From Promethearchaeota archaeon (GTDB lineage: Archaea > Asgardarchaeota > Lokiarchaeia > Sigyniarchaeales > SOKP01): 64,000 nucleotides of DNA. A program made the translations under genes and the position numbers. Of the stretch, positions 36,581-64,000 are shown piece after piece. Under the pieces are notes generated by a model, which made no database searches, was not told where the DNA came from, and saw only the letters and a list, made by a program, of their open reading frames with translations. The stretch is from contig JBHLOY010000003.1 in the NCBI GenBank assembly GCA_048939995.1, positions 256,001 to 320,000 on the forward strand. Direction: 5' to 3'. Every line of letters starts with the position of its first letter. Within the stretch, counting starts at the first letter, position 1.

Positions 36581-37297
36581 TCAGAATTTATAGATTACCT
36601 CAAAGGGTAAATCATTAAAAATATCTTCCGCAAGTTTTTTAAATTCTCCATCTAAGGCTTTATATCCCCTACAAGCATAATTCTTTAGAAGAAATTTAGT
36701 TGGTAGTAACTCCGATACTAATTTTTTCAATCCGAGTAAACTTTTCTGATTATCGTTAATTCCTTCTAAAATTACGCTTACTACGATTAGTTCTCCTTTA
36801 AATGTTTTTCTAAATAACCTCACCCCTTCAATTAAATCTTCTAAATAAATTCCCTCGTGTTGTCTACATATCTCTTGAAATTCATTTGGAATAACACTCA
36901 CGAGTTCAATTAACATTAAATCACACAAAGAACAATCTTCTCTTACTTCCTTGCGAGAAAGGAGGGAACCATTCGTTGAAATTCCAATTTTTATGTTTGG
37001 ATACATTCTTTTTATTAACATTGAAAGCTGTTTAAAAGACGCATAAAGAGTAGGTTCTCCAAATCCCGTCATCCAAACAATATTGGGTTCTCCTTTTAGT
37101 TCAATATATTCTCTAATTTCTCTAAAAATATCTCCAGGAGGATAAAATTCTTTTCTTTCAATGGTTTTATCTGTTGTTGGACCAGTTCCACAATAAATAC
37201 AATTAAAATTACATACTTTGAAAGGGTTAAAATTTATAGATAAAACTTTACCAAATCTACTGTCTTCTTTAAATCCCTTAACAAATTTCCACCCCAT
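36581..37297 (-). CDS. Radical SAM Fe-S protein, module copy 1 (intact motif)
   Basis: SRFGKVL, CNFNCIYC, GFGEPTLY, STNGSLL, GIND. Confidence 0.9.
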   Translation of the reverse strand: MGWKFVKGFKEDSRFGKVLSINFNPFKVCNFNCIYCGTGPTTDKTIERKEFYPPGDIFREIREYIELKGEPNIVWMTGFGEPTLYASFKQLSMLIKRMYPNIKIGISTNGSLLSRKEVREDCSLCDLMLIELVSVIPNEFQEICRQHEGIYLEDLIEGVRLFRKTFKGELIVVSVILEGINDNQKSLLGLKKLVSELLPTKFLLKNYACRGYKALDGEFKKLAEDIFNDLPFEVIYKF

Positions 37298-37321
37298 AAT
37301 CCCTTCACATATACTTTGCTC

Positions 37322-39862
37322 TTAATCTTCATCTGAATTTAATTCAAATTGCTTTATCTTTAATAAATAATTGTTAGCTTTCTTTAACCAATGCTCCTTT
37401 TTCTCCATTTCACATAAACATGAATGGGTGTAATCCTTCCCTTGTTCTAACATTTGGATGGATAGGTCATATTCTTTAAGATGATAGAAACAAATACCCA
37501 TTTTAATGAAAGTTTGATATACAAAAAACCCATAAGGCTCTAGACCTATAGCTGTTTTAAATAACTCGATTGCCTTCTTATAATGTTTAAATATCATTAA
37601 TATTTCTCCATACGAATCATGGTAATTTCCATTGTTTGGCTCTAAACTTACTAATTTTTCAGCTAAATCAATTGATTCTTTCTCACGATCTAGATAAGCT
37701 AAACCATAAACCATACTATTTACTAAATCATTGTCATCATGATATAATTCCATGAGTTTACTTAAAATTTCGTATGATTCCTCATATCTCTTCGGATCAT
37801 TTTCATAATAACCCATCTTAATCAACATATATGCTTTTTTATGCAATATATGCTTACTCTTGTCAGGAAACATAGGTAAAATTTCAGCTATCAATTCTAA
37901 TGCTTCATCAAATCTTTTGCCTAAGTTATACCCAAGTATCTTATTGTAGTAATAATCAATAATTTTAGGTCTTAACTCAATTGCCTCATCAATTGCTTCA
38001 AATGCTTCTTCAAATTGTCTTAACTCAAATAAAATTATTGCTTTTAACTGATAACATCGTGAGATGTTTAATTCACTTGACTCGAGAGAGATTGCCTCCT
38101 CGATTTCTTTGACAAACTTGTCTAATTTAACCTGATTTTTGTCCCATTCGAAAATAGTATTATATCCCAGTACCATTGCTCTATTCAAATGAGAAATAGG
38201 ATGATCGGAGTGAAAACTTATACTATCCTCTGAAATTTTGAATGCTTTCTTAAAATCCCCTATTGATAAATGTGAAAAGCTAAGAATAAATAAAATTACC
38301 GGTATAAGATCATTTCGGCCTAATTCCTCCAATTTATCAAGTTGTTTATCTAAAATTTCAATTGCTTCTTTCAGGTTACTATATAGACATAGAACAATTG
38401 ACTTTAATATGTACAACTCAACTTTTTTTGCATCAGATTTAAGTGCAGAACCAATTAGTTCCAAAGCTTTGTTCACATCTTTATTATCAATACAAGACAA
38501 CACTTCTTTAAATAATGGTTTAATGTCTTTGATATAATATTCTGCTAATGCTTTCAAAACTTCTGGATATAAATAATACCTTACTTCTTTCTGCCCTTTA
38601 AGAGGATGATCCAAATCTTCTGATTCAATAGTTCTGAGCATTAATGGGATATTTTCATAAATAAATCCCTCTAACTTATCAGAAGCATCTACTAACTGTT
38701 TCTCAGTTTCAACTTTATAGGATAAATATTTGATGTATTCTGGTAAAAATTCTTTTAGAGATCCCTTTAAATTTTTATGAAATAAATCATTGCAAATATC
38801 ATCAATAATATCATCAATTAAGGTATACATTGTATAATAAGGATATCCACTTAATTTATTTAGATAAGTAAATTTCGTTACATAATCGTCAACAATAGCT
38901 CGAAGCACCCGCTCAATTTTTTCATCTGACTGAAAATAAAAATGCTTATCACCATCAAATTTCAAACTCCAAAATTTAATCGGATAGATCTCCTTCTCTA
39001 CAATCTGATGAATATGAAATTTCAAGATGATCTCTTCAATATCATATCGTAAAGCAAATTCATCTGGAGAAATATATCTTGGATATGAATCAGGATGATT
39101 TATCGAGAAAAATAGTAATAACTTCTTGAAATCTTCCTCATCATCTAGTGAATTCTGCACTTTAGCATAATCCATCTTTAATACATTATTTAAAAATCGA
39201 AATTTTACATCCTTATCCTCAATACTATACTTTCTAAAGAATTCTCGCGTCTTTTTGGTGATCTCTTCAATCCTTTTACTCTCTTCCTCTAAAATAGATT
39301 GTCGGTCAAGATCATATAATCGTAACATGCGAGAATACTCTATTTTTCCCGCTTCTGTAATCTTATATCGCTTATTATCTTTCTGGACATAACTATTCTC
39401 CATTAATAGATTTAAATTTTTTGAGAGTGATGATTGGTTTATATAAACAGGTGTATTCTCCCTAAGAAAATCACTCCATTTGCAGTAACTATTATTGTAT
39501 AACATCCATAAGATCCAATGATCATAATTCCTCCTTCTTAAAACCGCTTTGGGAGGATAATTCAATCTCCTCTTTGATTTTTTCCGACGCGATAATTCAT
39601 GATACCTCTCTCTACCGGCATTTGTAATTATATAGATACCTCTCTTGATATTCTCTATATATCCTTTACTTTCTAACCGATTCTTGTAATTTGAAAGGGT
39701 TGATTGACTAATACTTACTGGATCTTCAGTAAAATGAGACCATTCACACTCATTATTATTATATAACATCCAAAGTATAATAAGCTCAAAATTTCTCTTA
39801 CCCATAGGAGAATTAGATAAAATTTCTTCAGGAGGCAAGTTTACTTGCTCACTTTTACTCAT
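37322..39862 (-). CDS. Tandem winged-helix + TPR protein, module copy 1 (start probably MSKSEQ at 39862; track gives 39937)
   Basis: Two repeats of ILWMLYNN..C.WS.F...I.QS.LS..L..L..GY...Y.IT.AG; TPR C-terminus (EAFEAIDEAIELRP, GNYHDSYGEIL). Confidence 0.88.
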   Translation of the reverse strand: MSKSEQVNLPPEEILSNSPMGKRNFELIILWMLYNNNECEWSHFTEDPVSISQSTLSNYKNRLESKGYIENIKRGIYIITNAGRERYHELSRRKKSKRRLNYPPKAVLRRRNYDHWILWMLYNNSYCKWSDFLRENTPVYINQSSLSKNLNLLMENSYVQKDNKRYKITEAGKIEYSRMLRLYDLDRQSILEEESKRIEEITKKTREFFRKYSIEDKDVKFRFLNNVLKMDYAKVQNSLDDEEDFKKLLLFFSINHPDSYPRYISPDEFALRYDIEEIILKFHIHQIVEKEIYPIKFWSLKFDGDKHFYFQSDEKIERVLRAIVDDYVTKFTYLNKLSGYPYYTMYTLIDDIIDDICNDLFHKNLKGSLKEFLPEYIKYLSYKVETEKQLVDASDKLEGFIYENIPLMLRTIESEDLDHPLKGQKEVRYYLYPEVLKALAEYYIKDIKPLFKEVLSCIDNKDVNKALELIGSALKSDAKKVELYILKSIVLCLYSNLKEAIEILDKQLDKLEELGRNDLIPVILFILSFSHLSIGDFKKAFKISEDSISFHSDHPISHLNRAMVLGYNTIFEWDKNQVKLDKFVKEIEEAISLESSELNISRCYQLKAIILFELRQFEEAFEAIDEAIELRPKIIDYYYNKILGYNLGKRFDEALELIAEILPMFPDKSKHILHKKAYMLIKMGYYENDPKRYEESYEILSKLMELYHDDNDLVNSMVYGLAYLDREKESIDLAEKLVSLEPNNGNYHDSYGEILMIFKHYKKAIELFKTAIGLEPYGFFVYQTFIKMGICFYHLKEYDLSIQMLEQGKDYTHSCLCEMEKKEHWLKKANNYLLKIKQFELNSDED

Positions 39863-39956
39863 AACAATAACTCTTTTACGGTAATCTATTCCATAATATA
39901 TAATTAGTAAAAGTTCAATATAAGGTTTCTCGTTCACAAGTCGATATGAACATTAT

Positions 39957-39974
39957 TTGAAGTTCGAACTTCAA
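39957..39974. promoter_or_regulatory. Perfect 18-bp palindrome, candidate operator
   Basis: TTGAAGTTCGAACTTCAA in the divergent intergenic region. Confidence 0.65.
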
Positions 39975-40058
39975 CTGAACAACATGAAGATAAACTAAAT
40001 ATGCACTTAGTGATTATAATTTCTTAAGAAAAAAAACTTAAAAAAGGAGTTAAAAAAA

Positions 40059-40319
40059 ATGGTACAAGTATATGAAAAGCATGGAATAGAAGACCTATTA
40101 GAGGTTAAAGCATGTGTAGTAGAGTCGCTCCCTGTAGTAGAGGAATGCACAGAATGCAGAGAAAGTAAAGAGGAGCAGAGCAAATCGCGATCATTTTTCA
40201 ATAGACTTTCAAAAAAGAACGTTAATTCCAAATCAAACGCTAAAATTTTAGAGGAGCAAGTCCATATCGACAAGCTCAAGCGTGGACTTCCTATTTCAGG
40301 GAGATTTTATATGGGCTAA
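40059..40319 (+). CDS. 86-aa protein divergent from wH-TPR copy 1
   Basis: AGGAG RBS; CTEC; ends GLPISGRFYMG. Confidence 0.7.
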   Translation: MVQVYEKHGIEDLLEVKACVVESLPVVEECTECRESKEEQSKSRSFFNRLSKKNVNSKSNAKILEEQVHIDKLKRGLPISGRFYMG

Positions 40320-40361
40320 AAAAGCCGAATATTAAAAAAATTAAAAAATGAGGAGAGAAAA

Positions 40362-40433
40362 ATGAATAAAAATGAAGAATTAAGAGTATCTGATATAATA
40401 GTTATTCAGAATCCAGCATATATAATGTATTAA
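40362..40433 (+). CDS. 23-aa peptide A
   Basis: MNKNEELRVSDIIVIQNPAYIMY; GAGGAG RBS; T-tract after; paralog at 43356. Confidence 0.72.
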   Translation: MNKNEELRVSDIIVIQNPAYIMY

Positions 40434-40503
40434 ATAAATCAATCAATTTTTTTATTTTTAATTAACCATTACGGGTACATTTTTCATTTCCATTATTGAC
40501 ACA

Positions 40504-40563
40504 TAAGGGAGGGGTGTTGGATTGATTTTTTATCACTTTTCCTTTACCTTTTCCCTCCCTTAA
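40504..40563. repeat. Hairpin-forming intergenic element, copy 1
   Basis: taagggaggg...ccctccctta 10-bp arms; homologous to 55234-55294. Confidence 0.75.
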
Positions 40564-40592
40564 CCTTTATCTTTTTAAATTGTATTTTGATT

Positions 40593-41096
40593 TTAAAAGG
40601 CTGAATGGCATTCTTCCACAATAGTACATGTCGGACAGACTTTACGTTTCATATGAATAAGCATTAAAGATAGCGCAGCTATAAATCCAATTAAAAATAT
40701 TAAAGCAAATAAAGAAAAGTTCAGAAAAAACGAAATAATTATTAAAATAATTGGTGAAAAAAACGTTATGAAAAAATTGATGCTCCATTTTTTTGCACAA
40801 GTTACATGCTTCTTTAGATACATTTCTTTCCATTTATCTAAAGGCAAGAGATTCGTGCTAATCATTCCTGTCTCATCATCTGTTGTTGTTTCCTTTACCC
40901 TATAATAACAATATTGACAATGCTTTAATGGCATTGCAAAAAAGTAAAACCCTATATAAAATGTTAAATACACCATAGCAACCCAAAAGTTAAGAAATAT
41001 TATCCCTATAGTACCAAAAGCCAACATAGCAAACCTCAAAACCCATTGAACTACAGGTTTAGTGTAGGGACACTTTAAATTAAATATCATATTCAT
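40593..41096 (-). CDS. Membrane protein with Cys motifs
   Basis: 4 TM; HCQYC and CPTC....CH. Confidence 0.75.
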   Translation of the reverse strand: MNMIFNLKCPYTKPVVQWVLRFAMLAFGTIGIIFLNFWVAMVYLTFYIGFYFFAMPLKHCQYCYYRVKETTTDDETGMISTNLLPLDKWKEMYLKKHVTCAKKWSINFFITFFSPIILIIISFFLNFSLFALIFLIGFIAALSLMLIHMKRKVCPTCTIVEECHSAF

Positions 41097-41235
41097 TCAA
41101 CCTAGATTAAATTAACTATTTACAATTTCTCAATGCTTCATTTCTTTTATATTTGGTTTTTTCTAAGCAGTAATATTATTTTGGGGTAAAAACAGATATA
41201 GTAAGCTTTTAACAAGATTTTTCAATAAAAATTTC

Positions 41236-41263
41236 ATTGAACTTAGACGCTGAATTTACCTTC
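41236..41263 (+). repeat. 28-bp intergenic repeat, copy 1
   Basis: attgaacttagacgctgaatttaccttc. Confidence 0.7.
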
Positions 41264-41278
41264 TATAACAAGTTAAGT

Positions 41279-41737
41279 TCATTCTGATAATTTTTTCTTT
41301 TTAATTTTTCTAATATAGATAATCAAATAGCCCGCAGGAATTGAAAGACTAAAGCCCCATAATGGAGATCTAAATATAAATAGAATACTCCCTATTGAAT
41401 AAAGAAAACGAATGATGAATTTTAATGCTCGATTTCTCAATGGTTTTTTTTTTAGAATTTGAATCAAATATTGAAAAATTGAGGGGATCCAGCACAGGAA
41501 GAAAACTAGGATAATTATTGGCAGGCTAATGAAATTTACTATGAAATAATAGAATATGTTCCCAATTATTAATGCAATAGTCGCACCCAGCAAAAAAGCA
41601 AAACATCCTATACAAACAGTATAGTTAAATATATAAAATATATGATCATTAAAATCATCCCGTTCTGGATCATGATGTGCTAACCAAGTGAGTATTATTC
41701 TTTTATCCTTTTGAAATTCTTCTTTTTGGTTTTGCAT
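41279..41737 (-). CDS. Membrane protein (DUF2085-like)
   Basis: AHH...VCIGC followed by TM helices. Confidence 0.65.
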   Translation of the reverse strand: MQNQKEEFQKDKRIILTWLAHHDPERDDFNDHIFYIFNYTVCIGCFAFLLGATIALIIGNIFYYFIVNFISLPIIILVFFLCWIPSIFQYLIQILKKKPLRNRALKFIIRFLYSIGSILFIFRSPLWGFSLSIPAGYLIIYIRKIKKKKLSE

Positions 41738-41759
41738 CCTTCTACTCCATTATTTAAGA

Positions 41760-42143
41760 TTAACAACTTGCACAGACTGCTCCTTTTGATCCAATAGCAA
41801 GGAGAATTAAACCTATTATAATAAGCGTTATTCCTACAGGCAATGATGAAGGTAGTGAAAAAACTCCCGCAATCGTTAATATAGCTCCAATCAGAAATAT
41901 TATGATTAAAGTTAGAGTAGATGATTTAATTTTAAGTCCTTGTCCTGAGGTGGATCTAAATTTTGAAAGTCTTATTATCTTATTTGAACCGCATTTGGGA
42001 CATTGTGGTAAGTCTTCTTCTTCAGTAGCCAGGCAATATTTACAATTTTGACACACTAAAAATTTCCTTTTCTCCCCCATTTTAACTTTATCTCTCTCTA
42101 CTAGAATTTTTTGTTCAGAATCAAATAAAAATAAAGATACCAT
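41760..42143 (-). CDS. Zinc-ribbon + 2-TM protein (true start probably the internal MGEK)
   Basis: CQNC...CPKCGS, two TM, ends CASC. Confidence 0.7.
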   Translation of the reverse strand: MVSLFLFDSEQKILVERDKVKMGEKRKFLVCQNCKYCLATEEEDLPQCPKCGSNKIIRLSKFRSTSGQGLKIKSSTLTLIIIFLIGAILTIAGVFSLPSSLPVGITLIIIGLILLAIGSKGAVCASC

Positions 42144-42225
42144 TTTATAAATTTTATCTAAAAAAAATTCATCTTGAAGAATCGTCTATTTCAACTTCCG
42201 TAAGAATTTCTAGCATTGAATTTTT

Positions 42226-42253
42226 ATTGAAATCAGACCCTGAATTTACCTTC
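42226..42253 (+). repeat. 28-bp intergenic repeat, copy 2
   Basis: attgaaatcagaccctgaatttaccttc. Confidence 0.7.
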
Positions 42254-42389
42254 CCAAACCAATTTCGTTGAAAATTGGGATAAAATTTAAAATAGTTTGA
42301 ACGTTTTTAGAATGATTATTGTAAATTGAATAGAAAATTTTTTTATTGATCTTTATTCGATAACAAGTTATAAAAAACGGATTTATAGA

Positions 42390-43205
42390 ATGATGTTCGT
42401 AATCAAAATGCTATTAGGCAAGGTTAAATTTAATGCTTGGAAAAGAAAAAACATTATTGAAGATTACGTCGATATCGGAGATATCAAAATGTATTATGCC
42501 ATGTTCGGTACTGGAGAGCCAGTTTTTTTATTACATGGCGGGATGGTAGATTACACAAGTTGGTTTTTTCAAATCAAAGAATTAGCAAAACATTTTCAGA
42601 TAATCGCTCCAGATACTCGAGCTCATGGAAGGACAACAGATTCAGATAAGCCTTTAAGTTATCATCTCTTTGCTTCAGATATTTCTCAAATGATGGAGAA
42701 ATTGGAAATAAAAAAAGCAAGTTTCGTAGGTTGGAGCGATGGGGGGTGCACTTCCTTGGTTCTTGGTCTACAGCATCCTGAATTAGTAAATAAGTTAGTA
42801 TTAATTGGTACTCCATATAATATATCTAATTTTTATCCTGATATCTTTGAAAGTTTTAATAATCTAAATCCTAATAATTTACCTAAAGATTATAAATTTA
42901 TTAAAAAAGCATATGAGAAAGTAGCATTAGATCCGGATAATTGGCCAATTCTAATCGAAAAAGAATTGAATATGGCTAAGAGAGAACCAAATTTCACGTT
43001 AGACCAATTGAAGAGCATTAAAAGTCCCTCACTTATTATTGATGGAGAAGGTGAACGCCTTTATCCATTAAAAGTTATTCAAGAAATGGCTGATGCTATA
43101 CCTAATGCGCAACTCGAAATTATTCCAGGTGGGACACATTTAGTTCTTATGGAGAAACCTAAACTAATAAACCGACTAATTGTAAGTTTTTTGAAGAATG
43201 ACTAA
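42390..43205 (+). CDS. Alpha/beta hydrolase
   Basis: LLHGG, GWSDGG nucleophile elbow, GTH. Confidence 0.92.
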   Translation: MMFVIKMLLGKVKFNAWKRKNIIEDYVDIGDIKMYYAMFGTGEPVFLLHGGMVDYTSWFFQIKELAKHFQIIAPDTRAHGRTTDSDKPLSYHLFASDISQMMEKLEIKKASFVGWSDGGCTSLVLGLQHPELVNKLVLIGTPYNISNFYPDIFESFNNLNPNNLPKDYKFIKKAYEKVALDPDNWPILIEKELNMAKREPNFTLDQLKSIKSPSLIIDGEGERLYPLKVIQEMADAIPNAQLEIIPGGTHLVLMEKPKLINRLIVSFLKND

Positions 43206-43233
43206 ATTGAATTCAGACTCTGAATTTTTCTTG
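43206..43233 (+). repeat. 28-bp intergenic repeat, copy 3
   Basis: attgaattcagactctgaatttttcttg; core AATTCAGA-C-TCTGAATT is a perfect inverted repeat. Confidence 0.7.
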
Positions 43234-43355
43234 AACTCCATGTTTAAATTAAATATTGGTCTCTACAAACTCTTTATATCGGGTTTAAATATTAAGAATT
43301 AGGAAAGTAAATTTTTCTCATTTCGATAAAAAATTAAAAAGTGAGGAGAAAGAGT

Positions 43356-43427
43356 ATGAATAAAGAAGGAAGAAAAAAGTCACCCAAGATAGTGGTTATT
43401 TATAATCCCGCATATATAATTTACTAA
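43356..43427 (+). CDS. 23-aa peptide B
   Basis: MNKEGRKKSPKIVVIYNPAYIIY; GAGGAG RBS; own TTTATAT box at about 43273; T-tract after. Confidence 0.72.
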   Translation: MNKEGRKKSPKIVVIYNPAYIIY

Positions 43428-43544
43428 TCAAATTTTTTTACTTTTTTTAAATTCATCATGAATTTCACGGGTACTATATTTTTAAAAGTGAAACTATCTA
43501 TATTTTAATATAAACTTAATTTAACTTTAAAGTGGAGGGTAAAA

Positions 43545-44267
43545 ATGGTAAATAATTATTATTTAAAAAATAAAGTAAAATTAACTACTCAATTTGAAAA
43601 GTATTTACATATATCAAAAGAATTATTGCTAAAGAAATTCAATGAACTGGAAATAGAAGAGATTTTTAATAAAATGCGAAATGAATATGAGAGTCTAATC
43701 CCAGAAATACCATATATCGGGGGTAAGAAAAATCCTTCCACACCTATGCTGATAGATTGTGTTGCTATGCTAGTATTTTTTCGCATTCTTGAACAAGCAG
43801 GGGTGACCTACCGTGAAATTGGGGAATTTAGTTATGAATTTTGGGAAAAGGTAAACGGGATAAGAGTCCATAAATTAGAAAAAGCAGGTCAAAATCCTGT
43901 AGATCAATATTTTAACGACACTTATATCAATTTTAATAAAAGTTACGCAAAAACAACACAACTAAAAGAATATCCAGACGATTTTGTTATGGAGTTTGTA
44001 GAAGGCGATGGTAAAACATTTGATTACGGTTATACTTTTACGGAATGTGGAATTCATAAAGTTTTTAAAAAGTTAGGGGCTGAGAAGTACGTTCCCTTCT
44101 TATGCTTGTCCGATTTTGCTCAGGCTAATATATTTGGATATGGATTTACACGAACTCAAACTATTGGGAATGGTGCTCTATTATGCGACCATCGATTTTT
44201 AAAAAAGGGGTCAACTCCACGAGCTTGGCCTCCAGATAATCTGCAAGAATTTAAGATGAAATTATAG
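43545..44267 (+). CDS. ATC_hydrolase-family protein
   Basis: IPYIGGKKN, TECGI, LCLSD, TRTQTIGNGALLCDHRF. Confidence 0.8.
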   Translation: MVNNYYLKNKVKLTTQFEKYLHISKELLLKKFNELEIEEIFNKMRNEYESLIPEIPYIGGKKNPSTPMLIDCVAMLVFFRILEQAGVTYREIGEFSYEFWEKVNGIRVHKLEKAGQNPVDQYFNDTYINFNKSYAKTTQLKEYPDDFVMEFVEGDGKTFDYGYTFTECGIHKVFKKLGAEKYVPFLCLSDFAQANIFGYGFTRTQTIGNGALLCDHRFLKKGSTPRAWPPDNLQEFKMKL

Positions 44268-44308
44268 CTTTCAGTTAACATTATAAAATAAGAAAAAAAA
44301 TAGTAAAT

Positions 44309-44500
44309 TTACTTAAATAAGTTTTCAAAGAGAGGAGAAGCTCCTACAGGAATAAATTCGTACTCAACTAGTTCTTCTCTTACAAATGGTAAGTCTTTAA
44401 TATAATTTTTAGCTTCATCAACATCTTTGCATTCAAGAACTAGCATAAGACCTGGCTTATCTGTTCTGAAATAAAATTCTCGGAAAAAAAGCTTGATGGT
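44309..44500 (-). pseudogene. 5'-truncated muconolactone-isomerase-like gene fragment
   Basis: REFYFRTDKPGLMLVLECKDVDEAKNYIKDLPFVREELVEYEFIPVG...; no intact start in frame seen. Confidence 0.5.
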
Positions 44501-44535
44501 AATGATTTCTTCAGCATAGTAGGATTTTTCTTGAA

Positions 44536-45498
44536 TTATACGCTTAACTCTTTAACTTTTAACTCCAGTTCTTCTATTCCTCTAATATCTTTAACAGATT
44601 TAGCTACATTAAATAATATTTGATAATAATTTAACGCAACGTTCTTTCCTTCCTCTCTAACAATAGCCTCACCACGTCTAAAAATTAGAACTTTTAATGC
44701 GTCAATCCGATCAACATTTGCCGCAGCAGAATATGCTTTTAAAAAGTAATCTCTCGCATTATCAAAATCATCTTTAAGAAAGTACAAAAATGCCACAGCA
44801 AAATATGAGAATTGCAAGGAGAATATAAATCCAATTTCTTCTCTTATTTCTGCAGACTTTTTATGGTATTCTAGGCCCTTATCAAGATCTTCTTTATAAA
44901 AAGAATAATAAAAAGCAAGATGTCTATATAAATAGGATTGTTCTAATTTAAAATTGCCCTCTTCTGCTAGCTCTAATCCCTTCTGATAATATTCAAAAGC
45001 ATTTTGTTTATCTCTATTATCAACTCCTTTTCTATTCTCATGATAAAGACCTAAATGAAAATAAGATTTAGATAATCCTAGTTTATCATTTATCTGGGAT
45101 CTGATATTTAGCGCTTTATCATAAAAATTCTTTGCTTCTTCAAAATCTCCTTCCAAAATTCCTTTACGGTATATGCAATTTCCATAAAGATCAAGAGCAT
45201 CAGCTAAAGTAGCCTTCGCATTAGAAGAATCTGCCAATGTTATCGCTTCCTGTAGCAAATTCATTTCATCATCATAATTAAATTCTTTAAGAAATTTTTG
45301 ATCAGTTTTGAGCTTAGCAACTTGTACTAAATATCTTGCTTTATCTTGCTTTTTTAATTCGTTTGAATCTAATATTTGTTTGATCGAATTGAGAAATAAC
45401 ATTGCGCTATCAAACTTGCCTTCAAAACGGTAAACCTCAGAGATTCTACAGACAATATTTATAAACTTGTTAAAAAGTTCTTCAAGCACGTTAATCAA
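44536..45498 (-). CDS. TPR protein
   Basis: EEAKNFYDKALNIR, SKSYFHLG, AFEYYQKGLEL. Confidence 0.85.
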   Translation of the reverse strand: MINVLEELFNKFINIVCRISEVYRFEGKFDSAMLFLNSIKQILDSNELKKQDKARYLVQVAKLKTDQKFLKEFNYDDEMNLLQEAITLADSSNAKATLADALDLYGNCIYRKGILEGDFEEAKNFYDKALNIRSQINDKLGLSKSYFHLGLYHENRKGVDNRDKQNAFEYYQKGLELAEEGNFKLEQSYLYRHLAFYYSFYKEDLDKGLEYHKKSAEIREEIGFIFSLQFSYFAVAFLYFLKDDFDNARDYFLKAYSAAANVDRIDALKVLIFRRGEAIVREEGKNVALNYYQILFNVAKSVKDIRGIEELELKVKELSV

Positions 45499-45739
45499 CT
45501 ATTAATACAATATTTCAGGAATTGAACTCGTTAGAAGATTAAAATTCTAAGTAGAATTATTAAATTACTTTATATATAGATTTACAGATTGAACTTCAAA
45601 CAAATTTTGATAAAAAATTTGAACTAACTCAGTTAATAAACTTGATACTGTATTAATCACTCCATTAAGTCTAAAACAACAGTTTTTTAAGAATAAATGA
45701 CTATTTTTTCTAGATCTTAAAGATTAGAGGGGGAATCAT

Positions 45740-46300
45740 TTGGTAGAAGTTAGATATTGGTGGCCTCTATTTCCTTTAATTGGAATTATTTTAATGATTA
45801 CGTCTTTATTTTTGCCATGGATGTTAGTTACAATTGATTATCTTCCTAATTTTTACTTACAGGATGGATTTTTGCTCTTTGGTGGTATTTTAGTTTCTCT
45901 GGAACCTTTTTCTGTATTATACCCAGAAATGCTAATCGTGTTGAACCTTCTTCGGATGCTATTAATAATTTTTGGGGCTGCTTTGATGGGGTATACTTTA
46001 TTATTGTTAATATCCACTATTTGGGTTATTAAAAGTAATAAAGGAATAAAAAAAGCAAAGATTATGTGGTTAGTTATTGGTCTTTTATTGCTTTCAAATC
46101 AAATAATCCAATTGGCTATTTATAATATAAATTTTTTATATATTAGTCGTCATTTCCCAAACCCGTTGACAGTTAGATTTACTGTTGACATAGGAATGAT
46201 CTTTTTAATATTTGGAAGTGTAATTTTGATTTTAGGATATATATTAGCTAAGAGAATAGGTCAAAATCGTCTCAGTGAAAAACCTATTAATGTTGATTAA
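45740..46300 (+). CDS. 4-TM membrane protein
   Basis: SLFLPW and hydrophobic helices. Confidence 0.7.
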   Translation: MVEVRYWWPLFPLIGIILMITSLFLPWMLVTIDYLPNFYLQDGFLLFGGILVSLEPFSVLYPEMLIVLNLLRMLLIIFGAALMGYTLLLLISTIWVIKSNKGIKKAKIMWLVIGLLLLSNQIIQLAIYNINFLYISRHFPNPLTVRFTVDIGMIFLIFGSVILILGYILAKRIGQNRLSEKPINVD

Positions 46301-55798: not shown

Positions 55799-56128
55799 TC
55801 AAAATAATAAATCAAGAGATATATCCTCAGGAGAAACAACAAATAGTAACTTTTTATTACTTAACCAATATCCTATTAGATAACCTTCTGAGCTTTTAAT
55901 CGTCAGTTGCTTAAAATTACCATTGTTCGTTTCGGAAACTATTCTTCTAGCAGCAGATAAAATCGCAAGTGCTATTCCCGCAATTTTTACATGTTCAATT
56001 TCTTGAGAAAGAGTTGAATTAAGAGGCATCCCCTCATTTGAAACAATTAATGCCTCTTTTATTTCAGGAAATTTTAAATATAATTTTTTCAAAATTTTTC
56101 GATGGGAACGAGCTTGAAACAACCTCAT
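55799..56128 (-). CDS. Roadblock/LC7 domain protein
   Basis: IKEALIVSNEGMPL.S, QLTIKSSEGYLI. Confidence 0.85.
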   Translation of the reverse strand: MRLFQARSHRKILKKLYLKFPEIKEALIVSNEGMPLNSTLSQEIEHVKIAGIALAILSAARRIVSETNNGNFKQLTIKSSEGYLIGYWLSNKKLLFVVSPEDISLDLLF

Positions 56129-56257
56129 TTCTAGCAGATACGGTTTTTATCTTTACTTTTTGTTTCTTCTTACATCTTAAATACGCTAACTATTATTATA
56201 AAACTTACTGATGCTTAATTATTTGATTAACAATTTAATTTTAGTTGAAAAGTTAAT

Positions 56258-56914
56258 TTAAAATCTAAATGACACCTTGAATGGAAGATCGTGAAAAATC
56301 TCTTTAAGTTTGGTCTTAAATTCATCAGAGACTGACTCTAAATCTTTACCTGTAAAAACATTTACTGAAAAATGATCTGGGGTAATCTCTAGTAAATATT
56401 TCTTCAAGTCTCGAACTGTATCTAAATCATCATTTACTCCCTTGAAAAACATAGTATAAATTCTAAAATTCCCTTTAAATTCTTTTCTAAAAATTCTAAT
56501 TCCCTTTAAAATTTCTTGAACGTTAAAGAAATCAAAACAAATGCAAGATTTATGAAAATTCGAAGGAGTAACAGAATTTAAGTTAATTACTATTAAATCA
56601 CATATCAAAAGTGCCTTTCGCACTTTTTCATAATTAAAAAGAGAACAATTAATATAAACTCCCATTTTCTGATTCGGAAAACTCTCCTTAATCTTATTAA
56701 GTAAGCGATTGAATCCAAAAAATAGGTTGATATCATTAATGCCTTTTAACCAGATGTAATCGGGACTTTCCTTTTTAAGAAAATAATCCTTTAACTCACT
56801 AAATATCTCTTCAGTGGGATAATACGGAATCTGATTATCAACATAATCAAAATCTACCGGTAAAACCTTCCCAAATTTAGAACTTGTTTGGAGTTCTTTT
56901 AAATGCAGATACAA
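56258..56914 (-). CDS. Radical-SAM-fold protein lacking CxxxCxxC, module copy 2
   Basis: Aligns by eye with 36581-37297 (SKFGKVL, YP..IF.E, GI..FRK.FKG, GVND, DLPFKV) but lacks the cluster loop. Confidence 0.82.
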   Translation of the reverse strand: MYLHLKELQTSSKFGKVLPVDFDYVDNQIPYYPTEEIFSELKDYFLKKESPDYIWLKGINDINLFFGFNRLLNKIKESFPNQKMGVYINCSLFNYEKVRKALLICDLIVINLNSVTPSNFHKSCICFDFFNVQEILKGIRIFRKEFKGNFRIYTMFFKGVNDDLDTVRDLKKYLLEITPDHFSVNVFTGKDLESVSDEFKTKLKEIFHDLPFKVSFRF

Positions 56915-56950
56915 TTCATCACCAGTGCTAAAAATAATTCTTTAGAAGTT

Positions 56951-59917
56951 TCAATCTTCAGATTTTTTATCGTACAAATCTTTATGAAATGAACTCATTA
57001 TTTCTGCCATCTTTTCCATTTTTTTAATCGATTTTTGTGCTTCCTCAATATTTCCAAGCTTTTCATGGCATATACTCATTTTACGATAAGTATCAGATAT
57101 ATACCATGCTGTAGGATTAATTCTTTCAGCCTCTCGTAGTTTTTCTAGTGCTTCTTCATACTTTCCTGATTCAATTAAAAGTTCTGCATACGTATCATAG
57201 GAATTCCCATCTTCAGGATCGCAACTTATTAATGTCTCTGCTGCTTCAAATGCTTCATTCATCCTATTTAATCTTAATAACATATATGCCCTATTATTCA
57301 AAAGTTCTTTATTATCTGGAAATTGTTTTAAAATTTCGTCTATATGATTTAATCCCTTATTGTAATCTTGAAGTTTATAATATATTAATGATTCTAATTT
57401 ACCTATACAATATCTTTGTTCTGGAAATTTATTGGTAATAGATTGACTTATTCCTATAGCTTCTTTATCTTTACCAAGTGACATCATGAGTAAGACTTTA
57501 GTTTTATAAAAATCAAAATCCATTGGATTTAACTTTATAGCTTCTTCAATAGCATTCAAAGCTTCTTCATTTAATCCCAGATCTCGCAATATAAAAGCCT
57601 CAGATTGTAGATAAAGTGCTTTCTTAAAATTAATCTTTTCAATATTTAAAGCATTATTGATACTCTCTTTAAAGTCATCAATAGTCAGATCATTTAATTC
57701 ACCACTATATATCAATGAATAACCAAAAACAAGGGCTTTTGAAAGGTAAGATATAGAATAATCTTGATACTTAATTTGGCTGATATTGGCAAAATCTAAC
57801 GCTTCCTTGAATCTATTACGAGCAATATATGAATACACTAAAATTAATATCGTAGAAGTATCTATTAGAGGATTTAATCCCCAAGGGTCAATAACAAAAT
57901 TTAATTCCTCTTTAATTATCTTTTCTGCCTCTCTATACTTCTTTGTAATACATAATATCAAAGCTTTTAGGATTAAAAGCTCTTTATCCAATGGTTTTAA
58001 TTTAATTGCATTATTTATCACTTCAAGAGGTTCTTTAGGTGATCTTGTACAAACACCTTCTGTGCAAACTATGGCTAAAAATTTTGTTCTTAATAGAAGA
58101 ATATTGTTTGGGAACTCAGAAATGGCTTTATTAATTACTTTGAGACCTTCAAGTTCTTGATCTTTTTTTATTAAAATTTGAGCTTTTTGGGCTATTAATG
58201 AAATATTAAACGCATTCTGAATCCCTTCTTCAACTACTTTTAATGACTTGTCTAAGAAATCCATTAAAAAGTAAGTCATTGACTGTAATAAATAGCCAAT
58301 ATAATTTTGTGGAAATTCTTGGATTATATGGTTTGTTATTTCAATTGATTCTTCGAATCTATGACCTACTGTTTTAATAATATCATTAACTACCAAACTT
58401 TCTATCTTGTCTAAATTCTGACTTTTATCATTAAATAGATTAAAAGCTTCATTAATCTTCCCATTTTTAAGCATTTGTATAATTTGACTAACAAATTCAC
58501 GATTTGATGCTTTAAAACCCTCTATGGTTTCAATATACTCAATATAATTCAATTTGCTTAAATAGAATAGATCCATTGATTCGAAAATTTGATAATACAA
58601 TGTATAATTCAATTCAGGCTCTTTCTCTAGAGTATTAGAAGCCTTAGAAGAAAAGGTCTCAAACTCTGCCGAAATTGTCTGCCAGATAAGACTTTCTAAT
58701 TTAGTCTCATCAGTTATTAACTTCTTTTCAGTTTCAATCTTGTATGCTAAATATTTTATATAGTTCGGTAAAAATTTCCTTAGAGTATCCTTTAAATTAT
58801 CATGAAATAAGTGATTACAAATTTCACTTAAGATATTTTCAATTATATTTGAAATGGTTAATGCTGGTGCCTTTTTGTTTGTATTCTCATATAAATTATT
58901 CAAATAGGTATATCGAGTTATATAATCATCTACAATTGCTCTTAAAACTCTCTCAATTTTTTCGTTCACTTGGAAATAATACACTTTATTAGGTGAAACC
59001 TCTAATTTGAAGAACTTTATTTCATAAAATTCTTCTTCCACTATTTTATCTATGAAGAAATTCAACGTCGTTTTCTTTAAATTAAAATCACTAGAAAATC
59101 TTTCAGGTGAAATATAATCTGGATATTGATTTGGATGATTTATTGATAAAAATAATAAGATTTTGTTAAAATCTTCTTCCTCTTCCAATAGGGTCTCTAC
59201 TCGAGAATAGTTTAATTTCAATACATTATTGAGAAATCTAAACTTAATTCTATCATCCTCTATTCCATATTCTTCAAAAAATTGGGTGCTAAATTTGGTA
59301 AATTCTTGAATATGCTTACTCTCTTCTTCTAATATTGATTGACGGTCTAATTCATATTCTCTTAGAACGTTAAAATATTCTGACTTACCCAATGGAGTTA
59401 TTTTATACTCTCTATTTTCATTAATAACAAAACCATTATCCATTAAGTAATTTAGAGCTCTCGATAATGAAGATTGATTTATTTTATAGAGGATTTCTTC
59501 AAATCTAATATCTTCTAAAAAGTCGGACCATTTACAAGCTTCATTATTATAAAGCATCCATAAAATCCAATGATTATATTCCCTTCTCTTTAATATAACT
59601 TGGGGAGGGTAATTTAGCCCTTTAGGGCCCTCTCTTCCATATTGTGTTAATTCCTTATATCTTTCTATACCTTCCTGAGTAATCTTATAATAATTACGTT
59701 CAGGCTTAATTATAAATCCTTTACCAATAAGCTTATCTAAATTCTGCGATAACGTTGAAGCAGGAATCTCGAGATTATCATCTGAATCATCAGTAAAATT
59801 AGACCATTCACAATGATCCTTTCCGTAAAGATTATCACTATTATATAATTTCCAAAGAATAATATATTCTGCAGAATTATTTGCGATTTTTGCAATCTGA
59901 ATTTTGGTTTTACTCAT
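56951..59917 (-). CDS. Tandem winged-helix + TPR protein, module copy 2
   Basis: Shares LNYPP, HWILWMLYNN..CKWSDFL, LDRQSILEEESK, KFRFLNNVLK, EKIERVLRAIVDDY with copy 1; long TPR C-terminus. Confidence 0.9.
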   Translation of the reverse strand: MSKTKIQIAKIANNSAEYIILWKLYNSDNLYGKDHCEWSNFTDDSDDNLEIPASTLSQNLDKLIGKGFIIKPERNYYKITQEGIERYKELTQYGREGPKGLNYPPQVILKRREYNHWILWMLYNNEACKWSDFLEDIRFEEILYKINQSSLSRALNYLMDNGFVINENREYKITPLGKSEYFNVLREYELDRQSILEEESKHIQEFTKFSTQFFEEYGIEDDRIKFRFLNNVLKLNYSRVETLLEEEEDFNKILLFLSINHPNQYPDYISPERFSSDFNLKKTTLNFFIDKIVEEEFYEIKFFKLEVSPNKVYYFQVNEKIERVLRAIVDDYITRYTYLNNLYENTNKKAPALTISNIIENILSEICNHLFHDNLKDTLRKFLPNYIKYLAYKIETEKKLITDETKLESLIWQTISAEFETFSSKASNTLEKEPELNYTLYYQIFESMDLFYLSKLNYIEYIETIEGFKASNREFVSQIIQMLKNGKINEAFNLFNDKSQNLDKIESLVVNDIIKTVGHRFEESIEITNHIIQEFPQNYIGYLLQSMTYFLMDFLDKSLKVVEEGIQNAFNISLIAQKAQILIKKDQELEGLKVINKAISEFPNNILLLRTKFLAIVCTEGVCTRSPKEPLEVINNAIKLKPLDKELLILKALILCITKKYREAEKIIKEELNFVIDPWGLNPLIDTSTILILVYSYIARNRFKEALDFANISQIKYQDYSISYLSKALVFGYSLIYSGELNDLTIDDFKESINNALNIEKINFKKALYLQSEAFILRDLGLNEEALNAIEEAIKLNPMDFDFYKTKVLLMMSLGKDKEAIGISQSITNKFPEQRYCIGKLESLIYYKLQDYNKGLNHIDEILKQFPDNKELLNNRAYMLLRLNRMNEAFEAAETLISCDPEDGNSYDTYAELLIESGKYEEALEKLREAERINPTAWYISDTYRKMSICHEKLGNIEEAQKSIKKMEKMAEIMSSFHKDLYDKKSED

Positions 59918-60159
59918 AATTTGATTATTTTGCCTATGTTTCTCACTTAATTAATTTAAATATGAACTTCTATTTATATTTTATAGTCCGTTACTTCGTT
60001 CCAAACTATCCCGAACAAATGTACTCCGATCAGAAGTACGCATAAATAAACTAAATATAGAAGTATTTCTTAACTTTTAATAAGTGAAAAGAAGGATTTC
60101 TAAAAAAAAATAGTCTCCCAAAGAAAAGAACAATTCAAATTAGTGAGTGGAAAGAAAAA

Positions 60160-60528
60160 ATGAGCCAAAATGTCGCGATATCAAGATATACAGATTCATT
60201 AGCAGCTGTTGAAACCATTCTTGAAGATTATTGGAAACCTAAAATTATCCCTCTTGAAAGTTTGGAACAGAAGCCTAAAACTAAAGAAAATCTGCATGAT
60301 ACGATTGCGGCTCAAAAAAGTCTTACGTACACTATTACGTTAAATGTGACTATTTTAGTGAGTTCAATTGGAGGGCTCTTACTGTTGATAACAATTAGCC
60401 CGTTATTAATACCCTTTAATATAATAATAATAATGGCATTTGCATTGGTCCAAGCTTTAGTTATAATAAAAAGCGAGACTGAATGTATTATGAAAAAAAT
60501 TAAGAAGAGGATGAGTAGGACAAAATGA
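60160..60528 (+). CDS. 122-aa 2-TM protein divergent from wH-TPR copy 2
   Basis: Polar N-terminus, two TM helices, basic tail. Confidence 0.7.
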   Translation: MSQNVAISRYTDSLAAVETILEDYWKPKIIPLESLEQKPKTKENLHDTIAAQKSLTYTITLNVTILVSSIGGLLLLITISPLLIPFNIIIIMAFALVQALVIIKSETECIMKKIKKRMSRTK

Positions 60529-60653
60529 ATGAAAATAGTAAGGATGTCTTATATAAGGTCACTTATGGCGTTATAACTCTTGCTACTATTGTTATAGCCG
60601 TCTATAGTTTAATATTTTTTATTGATTCATTAATGATTGCTTTTTCAAGTTAA
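60525..60653 (+). CDS. 42-aa single-TM peptide
   Basis: MNENSKDVLYKVTYGVITLATIVIAVYSLIFFIDSLMIAFSS; ATGA overlap with the upstream stop. Confidence 0.55.
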   Translation: MNENSKDVLYKVTYGVITLATIVIAVYSLIFFIDSLMIAFSS

Positions 60654-60702
60654 ATTCTTTTCCAGATCCGTATTTTAACAGGCCACCTGAGTGAGGGAAA
60701 CC

Positions 60703-62949
60703 TCACTCTAGCCCTGTTTCTAAAAATTTCTTTTGGTTCTTTACTTTTTTAAATATAAGGATTGATACAATAAATAAAATACAATATAGAAACATCATGT
60801 TATATCCGGGCACTGTTTCATTGTCTTCATTGTCTTCTCCGTAATTGCAGAATTGATTATCTTTAAAAATATTTCCTATACAATCCAATTCTTTTACACA
60901 CTCAGTATTCCCAAAAATAATGTTTTCATAGATATAATTGTAATTACTATGATCAAGGAATATACTGCAGCTATTATTGTTTACAATGTTTCCTGATATA
61001 CTGTTGTAATTACTAAAATAAAGCTGTATTCCATACTGATTCTTGTTTACTATGTTTCCTAAAAAAGTATTAGAATGACTATAATGTAAGTAAATCCCAG
61101 GACCAGCATTATTGTTTGCAATTATTCCGGAAATTGTATTATTATTACAGTAGTATAATGACAGCCCTAATGAACAAAAAGAAAGAATTTGGGATAATAT
61201 CGTCGAGTTATTACAATTAACAAGAATAATTTGTCCTGCATTTACAAAATCATTTAATCCTAAATTAATTTCATTCTTGTAATAATATAGTGGTCTTCCA
61301 TTTACTAAATTTGTAGTATCTATATTATTGGAACTTAATTCATTTCTGGATCCATACAATCTTCCTAATCCGCACTCATTCATAATATTTCTTCTAAAAG
61401 TATTATTAAGGTTATAATATATAAACATCCCATATTGGCTATTGTTTATGATATTGTCAATAATTATACTATTCGTAGCAGAACCTAATTCTATTCCAAA
61501 ATTCTTATTATTAATTAGTTTATTTTGGGAAAAGAGGTTATCATCACCATACGATAAATATATCCCCTCAGTACTATTATTTATAGCGTTTTCCACTATA
61601 TCATTATGGTTGCAATTATATCCAAATGATATTCCACAATAATCTGCATATATAATATTTTTTAAAATCTTATTACGATCACTGCTCCATAAATCTATAC
61701 CAACGCCACAACCATCTAATTCATTATCTGAAATGAAGTTACCATGACAGTATCTCAATTCTATCCCATAAATGTTATTATTGTTTAAAATACTCCCTGA
61801 AATATTGTTTTGGTTGCTATAATAAAGCTTTATTCCGTACTGGTTATTGTTTAATGTGTTTCCTAAAAAAGTATTAGAATGACTATAATGTAAGTAAATC
61901 CCAGAACCCCTATTATTTTTTGCGATGATTCCCGAAATTGTATTATTCGTACAGTAGTATAATGATAGCCCCAAAGAACAAAAAGAAAGATTTTGGGATG
62001 ATACCATTGAGTTATTACAATTAACTAAAATAATCTGTCCTGCATTTAAAAAATCGTTTGATTCTAAATTAATTTCATTCTTGTAATAATATAATGGCTT
62101 TCCATTTACTAAATTTGTAGAATCTATATTATTGGAACTTAATTCCTCACTCGTTCCAGGTCCAAAGAAGTGTCCAAACCCGCATTCACTCATGATATTT
62201 TTTCTAAAAGTATTATTAAGGCTATGAGATAAGCTCATCCCCGAAAGACAACTATTAAGAATATTATCTAATATTACGTTATTCTCCGCAGAAACTAATC
62301 TTATACCTTCCTCCTTATAATTTACTCTATTTCCAGATACATTATTATTAGATCCAAAAATATGTATCCCTGCAATACCAATATTAACAACATTACCTAT
62401 AATTTTGTTCTTATTGCTATTAGCTAAATGTATGCCATAATCATTATTATTTACGTTGTTCTCTTTAATAGTATTATTATTACTATTCTCTAAGTTTATT
62501 CCTTTTCGGTTATATGAACAGTTATTTCTAATTACCATTCCATTATTAACTCCGAACAAGTTTATTCCCGCATCCTTGGTGTACCATTCACTGCCAGAAT
62601 TATAAATCGTGCAATTTTCAATTTTAAAATATACGTTAGAATTTTCAATAATGATACAGCTTCCTAATCCTCCACCATCTATTATTAAGTCTTCAATATA
62701 GTAAGGATCAGTAAATGTGCCTGAACCAGTGCAGTTGCCAGCATTTCTAAAAGCAACCCAGCCAGAATTATCGATAATGCGGATTCTTACAGAACTTCTG
62801 GAACTAATTAGATTTTCTAATCTTATTTCAGAGTTACCTGTATATTCATCCCTATTATCAAGGTGATAATTTAAATTGAAATTTACCAGAGAAAATAATA
62901 GAAATGTAACTCCTAAGGTTATGAAAATAACTTTTATTCTAGATTTCAT
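60703..62949 (-). CDS. NosD-like right-handed beta-helix surface protein with C-terminal PGY-TM-basic sorting tail
   Basis: GI.L..S.NN.I..N repeats; GSGT..DPY.IE; TNLVNG.PLYYY twice; VPGY + TM + KKVK. Confidence 0.88.
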   Translation of the reverse strand: MKSRIKVIFITLGVTFLLFSLVNFNLNYHLDNRDEYTGNSEIRLENLISSRSSVRIRIIDNSGWVAFRNAGNCTGSGTFTDPYYIEDLIIDGGGLGSCIIIENSNVYFKIENCTIYNSGSEWYTKDAGINLFGVNNGMVIRNNCSYNRKGINLENSNNNTIKENNVNNNDYGIHLANSNKNKIIGNVVNIGIAGIHIFGSNNNVSGNRVNYKEEGIRLVSAENNVILDNILNSCLSGMSLSHSLNNTFRKNIMSECGFGHFFGPGTSEELSSNNIDSTNLVNGKPLYYYKNEINLESNDFLNAGQIILVNCNNSMVSSQNLSFCSLGLSLYYCTNNTISGIIAKNNRGSGIYLHYSHSNTFLGNTLNNNQYGIKLYYSNQNNISGSILNNNNIYGIELRYCHGNFISDNELDGCGVGIDLWSSDRNKILKNIIYADYCGISFGYNCNHNDIVENAINNSTEGIYLSYGDDNLFSQNKLINNKNFGIELGSATNSIIIDNIINNSQYGMFIYYNLNNTFRRNIMNECGLGRLYGSRNELSSNNIDTTNLVNGRPLYYYKNEINLGLNDFVNAGQIILVNCNNSTILSQILSFCSLGLSLYYCNNNTISGIIANNNAGPGIYLHYSHSNTFLGNIVNKNQYGIQLYFSNYNSISGNIVNNNSCSIFLDHSNYNYIYENIIFGNTECVKELDCIGNIFKDNQFCNYGEDNEDNETVPGYNMMFLYCILFIVSILIFKKVKNQKKFLETGLE

Positions 62950-63026
62950 ATTTCGCTAGCAATTGGTATTTACCAATAATAAATATTCTAAGTGGCAATT
63001 TAAATCTTATCTTTCTATTAGAAATC

Positions 63027-63686
63027 TTAGAATGTGAATGAAACTTTAAAAGGAAGGTTTTTAAGAATATCTTTAGCTTTATTCTTAAATTCATCAGAAA
63101 TAGATTCAAACCCATTCCCTGTAAAAGTATTCACTGAAAAATGGTCAGGTTTAATATCCAACAAAAATGTTTTTAGGTCTAGCATATCGTTAAGATTATC
63201 GTTGACACCGTCTATGAGTATCGCATACACCCTAAAACGACCTTCAAACTCTTTTCGGAAAGTTTTAATCCCATCTAGGATAGCTTGAACATTTACTTCC
63301 TCATCACATACACAAGATTTAAAAAAAGTTAATGGATTTACTGTATTCAAATTAGTGACGATTAGATCACATTGGGAGAGTTCTTTACGAACTATTTTAT
63401 ATCGAAATAATGAACAATTAACATACACTCCCAATTTCTGGTTAGGAAATTCTCTTTTTACTCTTTTAAGCAATTCTTGAAATCCATAAAATAGTTCCAT
63501 ATTTTTGACTCCTTTTAACCAGATATAATCTGGTTTTCCCTTCTTTTTGAAATAATCTTTAATTTCAGAGAATATAGCCTCTACAGGATAAAATTGAATT
63601 GACTCCTCGTTAGATTTAAGATTAATTGGTAAAATTTTTCCAAATTTCGAATTAATTTGCATCTCTTTTAAATGTATATACCCCAA
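63027..63686 (-). CDS. Radical-SAM-fold protein lacking CxxxCxxC, module copy 3
   Basis: Close paralog of 56258-56914 (PDYIWLKG, FPNQK.GVY.NCSLF, PDHFSVN.FTG). Confidence 0.82.
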   Translation of the reverse strand: MGYIHLKEMQINSKFGKILPINLKSNEESIQFYPVEAIFSEIKDYFKKKGKPDYIWLKGVKNMELFYGFQELLKRVKREFPNQKLGVYVNCSLFRYKIVRKELSQCDLIVTNLNTVNPLTFFKSCVCDEEVNVQAILDGIKTFRKEFEGRFRVYAILIDGVNDNLNDMLDLKTFLLDIKPDHFSVNTFTGNGFESISDEFKNKAKDILKNLPFKVSFTF

Positions 63687-63704
63687 TTACTCACCTAAAT
63701 GCTT

Positions 63705-64000
63705 TTAATTATACATATCTTTTATTAATGGTAATGTCTTTCCTTTTACCTCATTCATTTTTTTAAAGCATTTTTTAGCTTCCTCTGTATTACCAAGATT
63801 TTTATAACATTCTCCCATTTTGCGGTAGGTTTCAAAAATATACCATCCTGAGGGATTGATTTCAATCGCTTTTTCAAATTTCTCTATCGCACTTTCATAT
63901 CTTTTCAGTTCCATCAAAATTTCTCCATAAGTATCATAAGAATTTCCTTCTTCGGGATCAATTTCTATTAATTTCTCTATTGTTTCAAGTGCTTCTTCTA
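63705..64000 (-). CDS. C-terminal TPR end of a third wH-TPR paralog (partial)
   Basis: EEALETIEKLIEIDPEEGNSYDTYGEIL...INPSGWYIFETYRKM matches copy 2 DPEDGNSYDTYAELL...INPTAWYISDTYRKM. Confidence 0.8.
   Translation of the reverse strand, partial: EEALETIEKLIEIDPEEGNSYDTYGEILMELKRYESAIEKFEKAIEINPSGWYIFETYRKMGECYKNLGNTEEAKKCFKKMNEVKGKTLPLIKDMYN

Follow-up and report, generated by a model that had tools for sequence, protein, structure and literature searches.

Peptide-sensing regulators of the RRNPPA family, among them Rgg/SHP, PlcR, NprR, PrgX and AimR (PMC9765709, PMC12700828), are built on a core of 5 or 9 tetratricopeptide repeats (TPRs) with an optional single N-terminal helix-turn-helix (HTH) domain (PMC12700828), and the SHP peptides leave the cell through a non-Sec exporter (PMC9765709). 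The locus described here, from an Asgard archaeon that the labels of its homologs assign to Promethearchaeota / Lokiarchaeia, lies in a 64,000-nucleotide stretch (contig JBHLOY010000003.1, positions 256,001 to 320,000; hereafter, the window) of a 3.75-Mb genome with 30% GC content. It encodes three gene pairs, each made up of a large protein with winged-helix (wH) units and TPRs and, immediately downstream, a short protein with the fold of radical S-adenosylmethionine (SAM) enzymes. To our knowledge, transcription control in Asgard archaea has been little characterised, and a literature search of incomplete coverage returned no paper on this regulator family. The system is real and, as the initial annotation supposed, apparently lacks a description in the literature.

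The open reading frames (ORFs) of the window bear out the proposed arrangement, a two-gene unit present three times and always on the minus strand, with 24, 36 and 18 bp between the two genes of pair 1 (36581-37297 / 37322-39862), pair 2 (56258-56914 / 56951-59917) and pair 3 (63027-63686 / 63705 to the window edge at 64000), respectively. The third copy had been described as partial; it is cut by the window edge, but in the genome it is a complete regulator gene. The copy-1 regulator (846 aa, 37322..39862) belongs to a mid-length class and, from its ORF and Pfam matches, consists of two wH units, a core with a third wH unit and TPRs, and the regulators of copy 2 (988 aa, 56951..59917) and copy 3 (984 aa in the genome, 3' end at 63705..64000) belong to a long class. 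The large proteins share ~52% identity across their first ~415 aa. Because the tandem of copies 2 and 3 is also present on an independent Logan contig, it is not an assembly artefact; duplication during assembly is likewise ruled out by the 51% identity.

We built an AlphaFold (AF2) model of copy 2 on a 94-row alignment (predicted local distance difference test, pLDDT, 84.5). The model places wH1 at residues 16-94 and wH2 at 105-187, followed by a helical segment, a third winged-helix-type unit of the helix-helix-helix-hairpin form (247-316), a helical linker and a TPR solenoid (440-988), the C-terminal part comprising about 30 helices. The two N-terminal wH repeats noticed initially are supported by winged-helix Pfam matches, by 41% identity between the repeats and by the modelled fold, and the TPR arrays by Pfam, the AF2 model and structure searches. 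The "central block", described as strongly conserved, holds the third winged-helix-type unit, which had been missed. Pfam matches and model thus agree on the wH fold of a winged-helix transcription factor; wH2 is one of the most conserved regions of the family, and the repeats weakly match HTH_45, HTH_34, MarR, Sso10a and Sta1, without reaching the curated Sso10a and Sta1 cut-offs. Like MarR/Sso10a/Sta1-like archaeal regulators, the Asgard protein has wH repeats and an inverted-repeat site near TATA boxes; it differs from them in fusing tandem wH units to a novel core and TPRs.

The suggested kinship with RRNPP regulators holds as an analogy of layout, and fails as membership on both profile homology and architecture. 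The two systems share a DNA-binding domain joined to a TPR solenoid, adjacent and often divergent short peptide genes (here, ORFs of 23 aa and ~70-86 aa, both conserved, that diverge from the regulator gene) and expansion by paralogy. The Asgard regulators, however, carry three wH units and a ~230-aa lineage-specific core where RRNPPA proteins have one HTH, and their TPR arrays are variable and much longer, with about 30 C-terminal helices in copy 2 and total lengths of 430-1300 aa across the family. They also occur in an archaeal host and match no RRNPP sequence family: the profiles RNPP_C, Rgg_C, AimR and HTH_3 are absent from all 24 Pfam matches of copy 1, from the best 25 of the 34 Pfam matches of copy 2 and from the NCBIfam matches of both. 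The system differs further in its co-transcribed pseudoenzyme; the ~70-aa proteins generally lack a hydrophobic export signal, and no transporter is linked consistently in the loci read. Fold searches with the whole model were dominated by TPR matches and covered the TPR part rather than the core or the third wH; the top matches are eukaryotic TPR scaffolds, and the TPR part resembles generic TPR solenoids, with PlcR at rank 18 (Z 17.2, root-mean-square deviation 3.9 over 191 residues) and Rap also among the matches. An Atlas feature search with the core gave sub-threshold leads only.

All three partners have the radical-SAM fold attributed to them, but CxxxCxxC is kept by that of copy 1 alone, and those of copies 2 and 3 are catalytically dead. 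The copy-1 partner (36581..37297, minus strand; PF04055, E = 1.7e-16) is a 238-aa short radical-SAM protein without SPASM, and its intact CxxxCxxC, GGE-type motif and partial TIM barrel predict a catalytic radical SAM enzyme. In the partners of copy 2 (218 aa, 56258..56914, minus strand) and copy 3 (219 aa, 63027..63686, minus strand; 60% identical to the former), a clean 19-residue deletion has removed the cluster loop, so that CxxxCxxC is missing, and the GGE motif is lost. Compared with the radical SAM superfamily (PF04055) and the PSRRLG-type family, all the partners share the partial TIM barrel and have lost the C-terminal extension. A model of the dead form (pLDDT 91) predicts a radical-SAM partial (beta/alpha)6 barrel, the best structure matches of which are the pyruvate formate-lyase activating enzyme (PFL-AE; Foldseek template modelling score, TM, 0.69) and NifB, with an Atlas TM of 0.80.

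In a partner tree rooted on the 315-aa PSRRLG-type family, the dead forms make up one clade of 42 genes (support 100/99), sister to the intact forms that adjoin regulators. The branching order runs from free-standing short intact forms, which are also present in another Asgard family, through regulator-linked intact forms to the dead clade. The cluster loop is gone in 42/42 genes of this clade, and CxxxCxxC is found in 0/108 full-length database homologs; as judged from these sequences, there was a single loss of catalysis, in the long-regulator branch. The dead partner is under purifying selection, with a median ratio of nonsynonymous to synonymous substitution rates (dN/dS) of 0.225 over 19 independent pairs, against 0.16 in the intact short forms and 0.22 in the long regulators, and the clade keeps GxND in beta5, a polar motif after beta4 and cysteines C90, C105 and C126. 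Recent pseudogene decay of the copy-2 and copy-3 partners was rejected on their common clean deletion and a dN/dS of about 0.22. Because the catalytic parts have been lost yet the gene is conserved, these results point to the reuse of an enzyme in the role of a non-catalytic partner, which may still bind an adenosine ligand. Pseudoenzyme regulators, such as pseudokinases and iRhoms, are known in general, and the present case resembles them in that a dead paralog is kept by selection beside an active relative. Within the same incomplete literature coverage, we came across neither a radical-SAM pseudoenzyme that pairs with a transcription factor nor one that is selected and monophyletic.

The tight linkage originally described is evident from the partner's side. 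The dead partner lies directly downstream of a long (~985-aa) regulator in 41/41 informative GTDB loci, and likewise on the further contigs checked, with gaps mostly below 60 bp, and both dead copies without an upstream regulator are 5'-truncated and contain stops. From the regulator's side, the partner is not "fixed", because it is absent from 5 of the 8 paralogs in the host genome and from about 87% of regulators family-wide, some of which have Rab-like GTPase neighbours. Only the three window copies among the host's paralogs have a radical-SAM partner, and 3 of the others adjoin Rab-like GTPase genes. Across the family, a short radical-SAM gene is found directly downstream of about 51 of about 399 regulators (~13%; 42 dead and 9 intact), as counted separately from the 94-regulator tree, the members of which were chosen partly by partner proximity. 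Partner type tracks regulator clade, intact forms occurring with one clade of ~845-aa proteins and dead forms with the ~985-aa proteins. At some intact-partner loci (L066, L068, L069), a second intact short radical-SAM paralog lies further downstream. A separate clade of ~990-aa regulators (L156-L161) has no radical-SAM gene and instead a convergent gene of ~330-376 aa, often together with two or three tandem micropeptide genes.

The paralogous expansion reported for the regulators is confirmed by about 400 copies across 106/135 genomes of the host Asgard family. Among 266 other genomes of the phylum, we found one strong match, one moderate match and a dozen weak ones. The regulators fall into length classes of about 430 (without TPRs), 640, 840 and 985 aa, and distant relatives combine one N-terminal wH with long TPR arrays; two such homologs (L224 with 1001 aa and L225 with 1305 aa) have the gene of a small NYN-type RNase (PF11977) as their divergent neighbour. 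Occurrence in bacteria was rejected, the sole match, from Desulfobacteraceae, being a 3.2-kb contig with 30.6% GC that was probably misbinned. With the query used, the family was not found in an order-level family with complete single-contig genomes (f2, 0/14), an absence that may restrict experiments in vivo.

An analysis of k-mers enriched upstream of the regulator genes yielded a palindrome, the inverted repeat GAACTTC-N4-GAAGTTC. Its copies often overlap in an array that is flanked on either side by a TATA-like box, the two boxes standing back to back. A position weight matrix trained without the host genome, whose training biases it towards the 4-bp spacer, scored at least 13.5, the threshold, in 4/8 paralog promoters of this genome as against 11 among the roughly 1990 remaining intergenic regions (Fisher P = 1.4e-7). 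Upstream of copy 1, two overlapping repeats of this type form a candidate operator (39946..39985; held-out scores 19.5 and 15.6) that includes a perfect 18-bp palindrome at 39957-39974 and lies between back-to-back TATA-like boxes, and the copy-2 promoter contains a variant candidate operator with a 5-bp spacer (60019..60041, score 15.0). The operator of copy 3 and its divergent 71-aa gene are located beyond the window. This enrichment is the best evidence that the large proteins are transcription factors, and their DNA binding is putative. A sigma-70 promoter scan, based on a model ill-suited to archaea, performed at chance level. A look for RNA data covering 36500-43500 gave no RNA holder, a result that is uninformative about expression.

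Both complete copies face a small divergent operon, as had been noted, but the gene families opposite copies 1 and 2 are not the same. Opposite copy 1 lies the gene of a charged 86-aa protein (40059..40319, plus strand), of a ~70-95-aa family encoded opposite most regulator genes (56/87 informative cases). It is followed by an unannotated 23-aa micropeptide gene (40362..40433, plus strand) with a Shine-Dalgarno (SD) sequence, a basic start, an aliphatic run, NPAY and a C-terminal Tyr, which is conserved in other genomes. A second, paralogous 23-aa micropeptide gene, also with an SD sequence, is found at 43356..43427 (plus strand), and these two are the only NPAY-type peptides found in the host genome. 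Copy 2 has no ~70-aa gene; it faces genes for a 122-aa membrane protein (60160..60528, plus strand) and a 42-aa hydrophobic microprotein, probably with a single transmembrane segment (60525..60653, plus strand), both conserved, the latter in relatives. Across the family, the small-protein gene is often followed by ORFs of 22-29 aa that have an SD sequence and encode peptides with a basic start, an aliphatic stretch, an Asn and an aromatic last residue, a feature of most of the 23-aa peptides. These micropeptide ORFs occur at 23-28 of 87 informative loci, compared with 0.007 pattern matches per 1.5 kb genome-wide.

Our preferred reading, to which we give an even chance, is that the large protein acts as a one-component transcription factor, with TPRs that recognise protein or peptide partners and with the pseudoenzyme as a clade-specific accessory. 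A regulator dimer would very probably bind the inverted repeat and control the divergent small-protein operon along with the operon of the regulator itself. In archaeal promoters, a site upstream of the TATA box is in general compatible with activation, and the position of the palindrome just upstream of both TATA boxes suggests this mode. The TPR solenoid would serve as the input surface, and on balance we favour the co-regulated small proteins and 23-aa peptides as its likeliest intracellular feedback ligands. The radical-SAM-fold gene would have been recruited from the free-standing short family, itself derived from the 315-aa PSRRLG-type enzyme. The dead partner could then modulate the regulator as a non-catalytic accessory, by binding either the regulator or a common ligand (SAM or an adenosine product), a role we deem plausible if slightly doubtful; Rab-like GTPases may hold the accessory slot in other branches. 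Complex prediction for regulator residues 212-988 with the dead partner scored 0.29, with the mark at 0.32, and is evidence neither way. Several observations weigh against the preferred reading. The wH regions of copy 2 are net acidic, its promoter has only the 5-bp-spacer variant, three host paralogs lack a good palindrome site and, because the palindrome also adjoins a TrmB-like gene, another factor could bind it. Long regulators without a radical-SAM neighbour occur in several genomes, which means that the architecture can do without the partner; the linkage of regulator and dead partner goes back largely to a single inherited event, and a single event may likewise lie behind the two orphan copies.

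The main rival treats the radical-SAM-fold gene as a mere co-transcribed output, the dead form of which serves a separate purpose, as a ligand or metal sink or in association with another protein, without ever contacting the regulator. Operon position by itself would account for the adjacency, most regulators have no partner, free-standing intact short forms sit beside NifU-like or nitroreductase-like genes, and the dead clade conserves three cysteines (C90, C105, C126). We nevertheless consider this rather unlikely, as no intact dead copy was found apart from a long regulator, orphans decay, and the regulator/partner pair stays constant while genes further downstream vary freely. A different proposal makes the large protein a scaffold, its wH units binding proteins rather than DNA, like the wH units of ESCRT-II or of the cullin type, and assigns the palindrome to another factor. 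It draws on the eukaryotic TPR scaffolds among the best structural matches, on the small GTPases and the ubiquitin operon among the neighbours and on the acidic wH regions of copy 2; the rarity of the palindrome genome-wide, its concentration at promoters of the regulator family and the likeness of the wH units to MarR/Sso10a/Sta1 DNA binders make it the least credible of the explanations considered.

Two further explanations take the micropeptides as their starting point. In RRNPP-like cell-cell signalling, the 23-aa peptides would be exported, processed, re-imported and bound by the TPRs, as in Rgg/SHP. The divergent short peptide genes, with their basic start and aliphatic run, have an SHP-like layout, SHPs themselves use a non-Sec exporter (PMC9765709), and PlcR and Rap are among the structural matches of the TPR part. 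This nonetheless appears improbable: no RRNPP family model matches, wH units stand in place of the RRNPP HTH, the TPRs far exceed 5 or 9, PlcR ranks 18th among generic TPRs, a signal-like hydrophobic stretch is present in just 2/60 of the ~70-aa proteins, and the loci read show no consistent linkage to an exporter, a protease or an importer. The aliphatic run also looks like that of streptococcal SHPs, a low-complexity resemblance that does not amount to a test. The initial annotation had also invoked the radical-SAM RiPP (ribosomally synthesised and post-translationally modified peptide) clusters controlled by Rgg/SHP pairs. On a RiPP reading of the present locus, the radical-SAM protein would cross-link the micropeptides under control of the regulator. 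The intact copy-1 enzyme and the presence of a peptide at 5/5 informative intact-partner loci agree with such a cluster, but the analogy fails for copies 2 and 3, because their partners cannot be radical enzymes, and of the about 51 linked partners, 42 have lost catalysis. The 238-aa protein contains no SPASM, twitch or RiPP recognition element (RRE), all RiPP-maturase models fall far below cut-off, and micropeptides are found whether the radical-SAM partner is intact, dead or missing (11 loci without such a gene), which argues against a RiPP cluster and leaves it very improbable.

Several neighbouring features were also recorded. The 315-aa parent radical-SAM gene (L006:4318-5265) stands with a NifU-like gene in an Fe-S-type operon, and free-standing 241-aa short forms often retain a NifU-like neighbour. 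An ATC_hydrolase-family gene lies downstream of the copy-1 partner (35749-36564), and a gene resembling it (43545-44267) follows the second micropeptide gene. Copy 3 (L001:3705-6659) has a divergent 71-aa gene closely like that of L067, the regulator of which groups with copy 2, a mismatch that may reflect recombination or gene loss after duplication. In genus g22, divergent operons (in the upstream regions of L073, L082, L084 and L116) also encode a ~45-aa CxxC...CxxC zinc-ribbon microprotein, some of them also a ~30-aa Cys-rich peptide. Further palindromes in the window are found at 45589-45610 (score 15.3), between a 320-aa TPR-like gene (44536-45498, minus strand) and a 186-aa membrane protein gene (45740-46300, plus strand), and at 29235 (score 14.0). 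The best palindrome score of the genome (contig C11 of G000, position 61356) falls between an aldo-keto-reductase-like gene and a 751-aa TrmB-like gene. On contig C17, a TPR-less 431-aa paralog (L005:4924-6219) lies directly upstream of a ubiquitin-like/E2/E1/JAB cluster, and three strong palindrome variants near it (220155, 224804, 235589), in divergent promoters that serve genes for probable secreted or membrane proteins, suggest a local regulon.

These results bear on the annotation of the radical-SAM-fold proteins as well. The PSRRLG-type ~315-aa family is labelled "wyosine synthetase" in JGI, and the TYW1 model TIGR03972 gave 26.5 bits for the copy-1 partner and 36.7 bits for the 315-aa parent against a cut-off of 318. 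Because none reaches that cut-off, the label does not denote a function, and database labels of this kind on these proteins are wrong. More broadly, the locus may belong to an Asgard-specific modular signalling system convergent with RRNPP, in which a triple-wH/TPR factor would sense its own micropeptides and work with a swappable accessory subunit, in some branches a Rab-like GTPase and in the present one a radical-SAM pseudoenzyme that acts as SAM or metabolite sensor; we put this forward tentatively, as possible though doubtful. If it were true, an active ancestor (copy 1) and its dead descendant (copies 2 and 3) would be preserved side by side. The window offers a defined family of regulators, together with a candidate operator and with candidate ligands open to in vitro testing, and, with the active sister form encoded in the same window as the dead forms, the transition from an enzyme to a non-catalytic partner is accessible to direct study.

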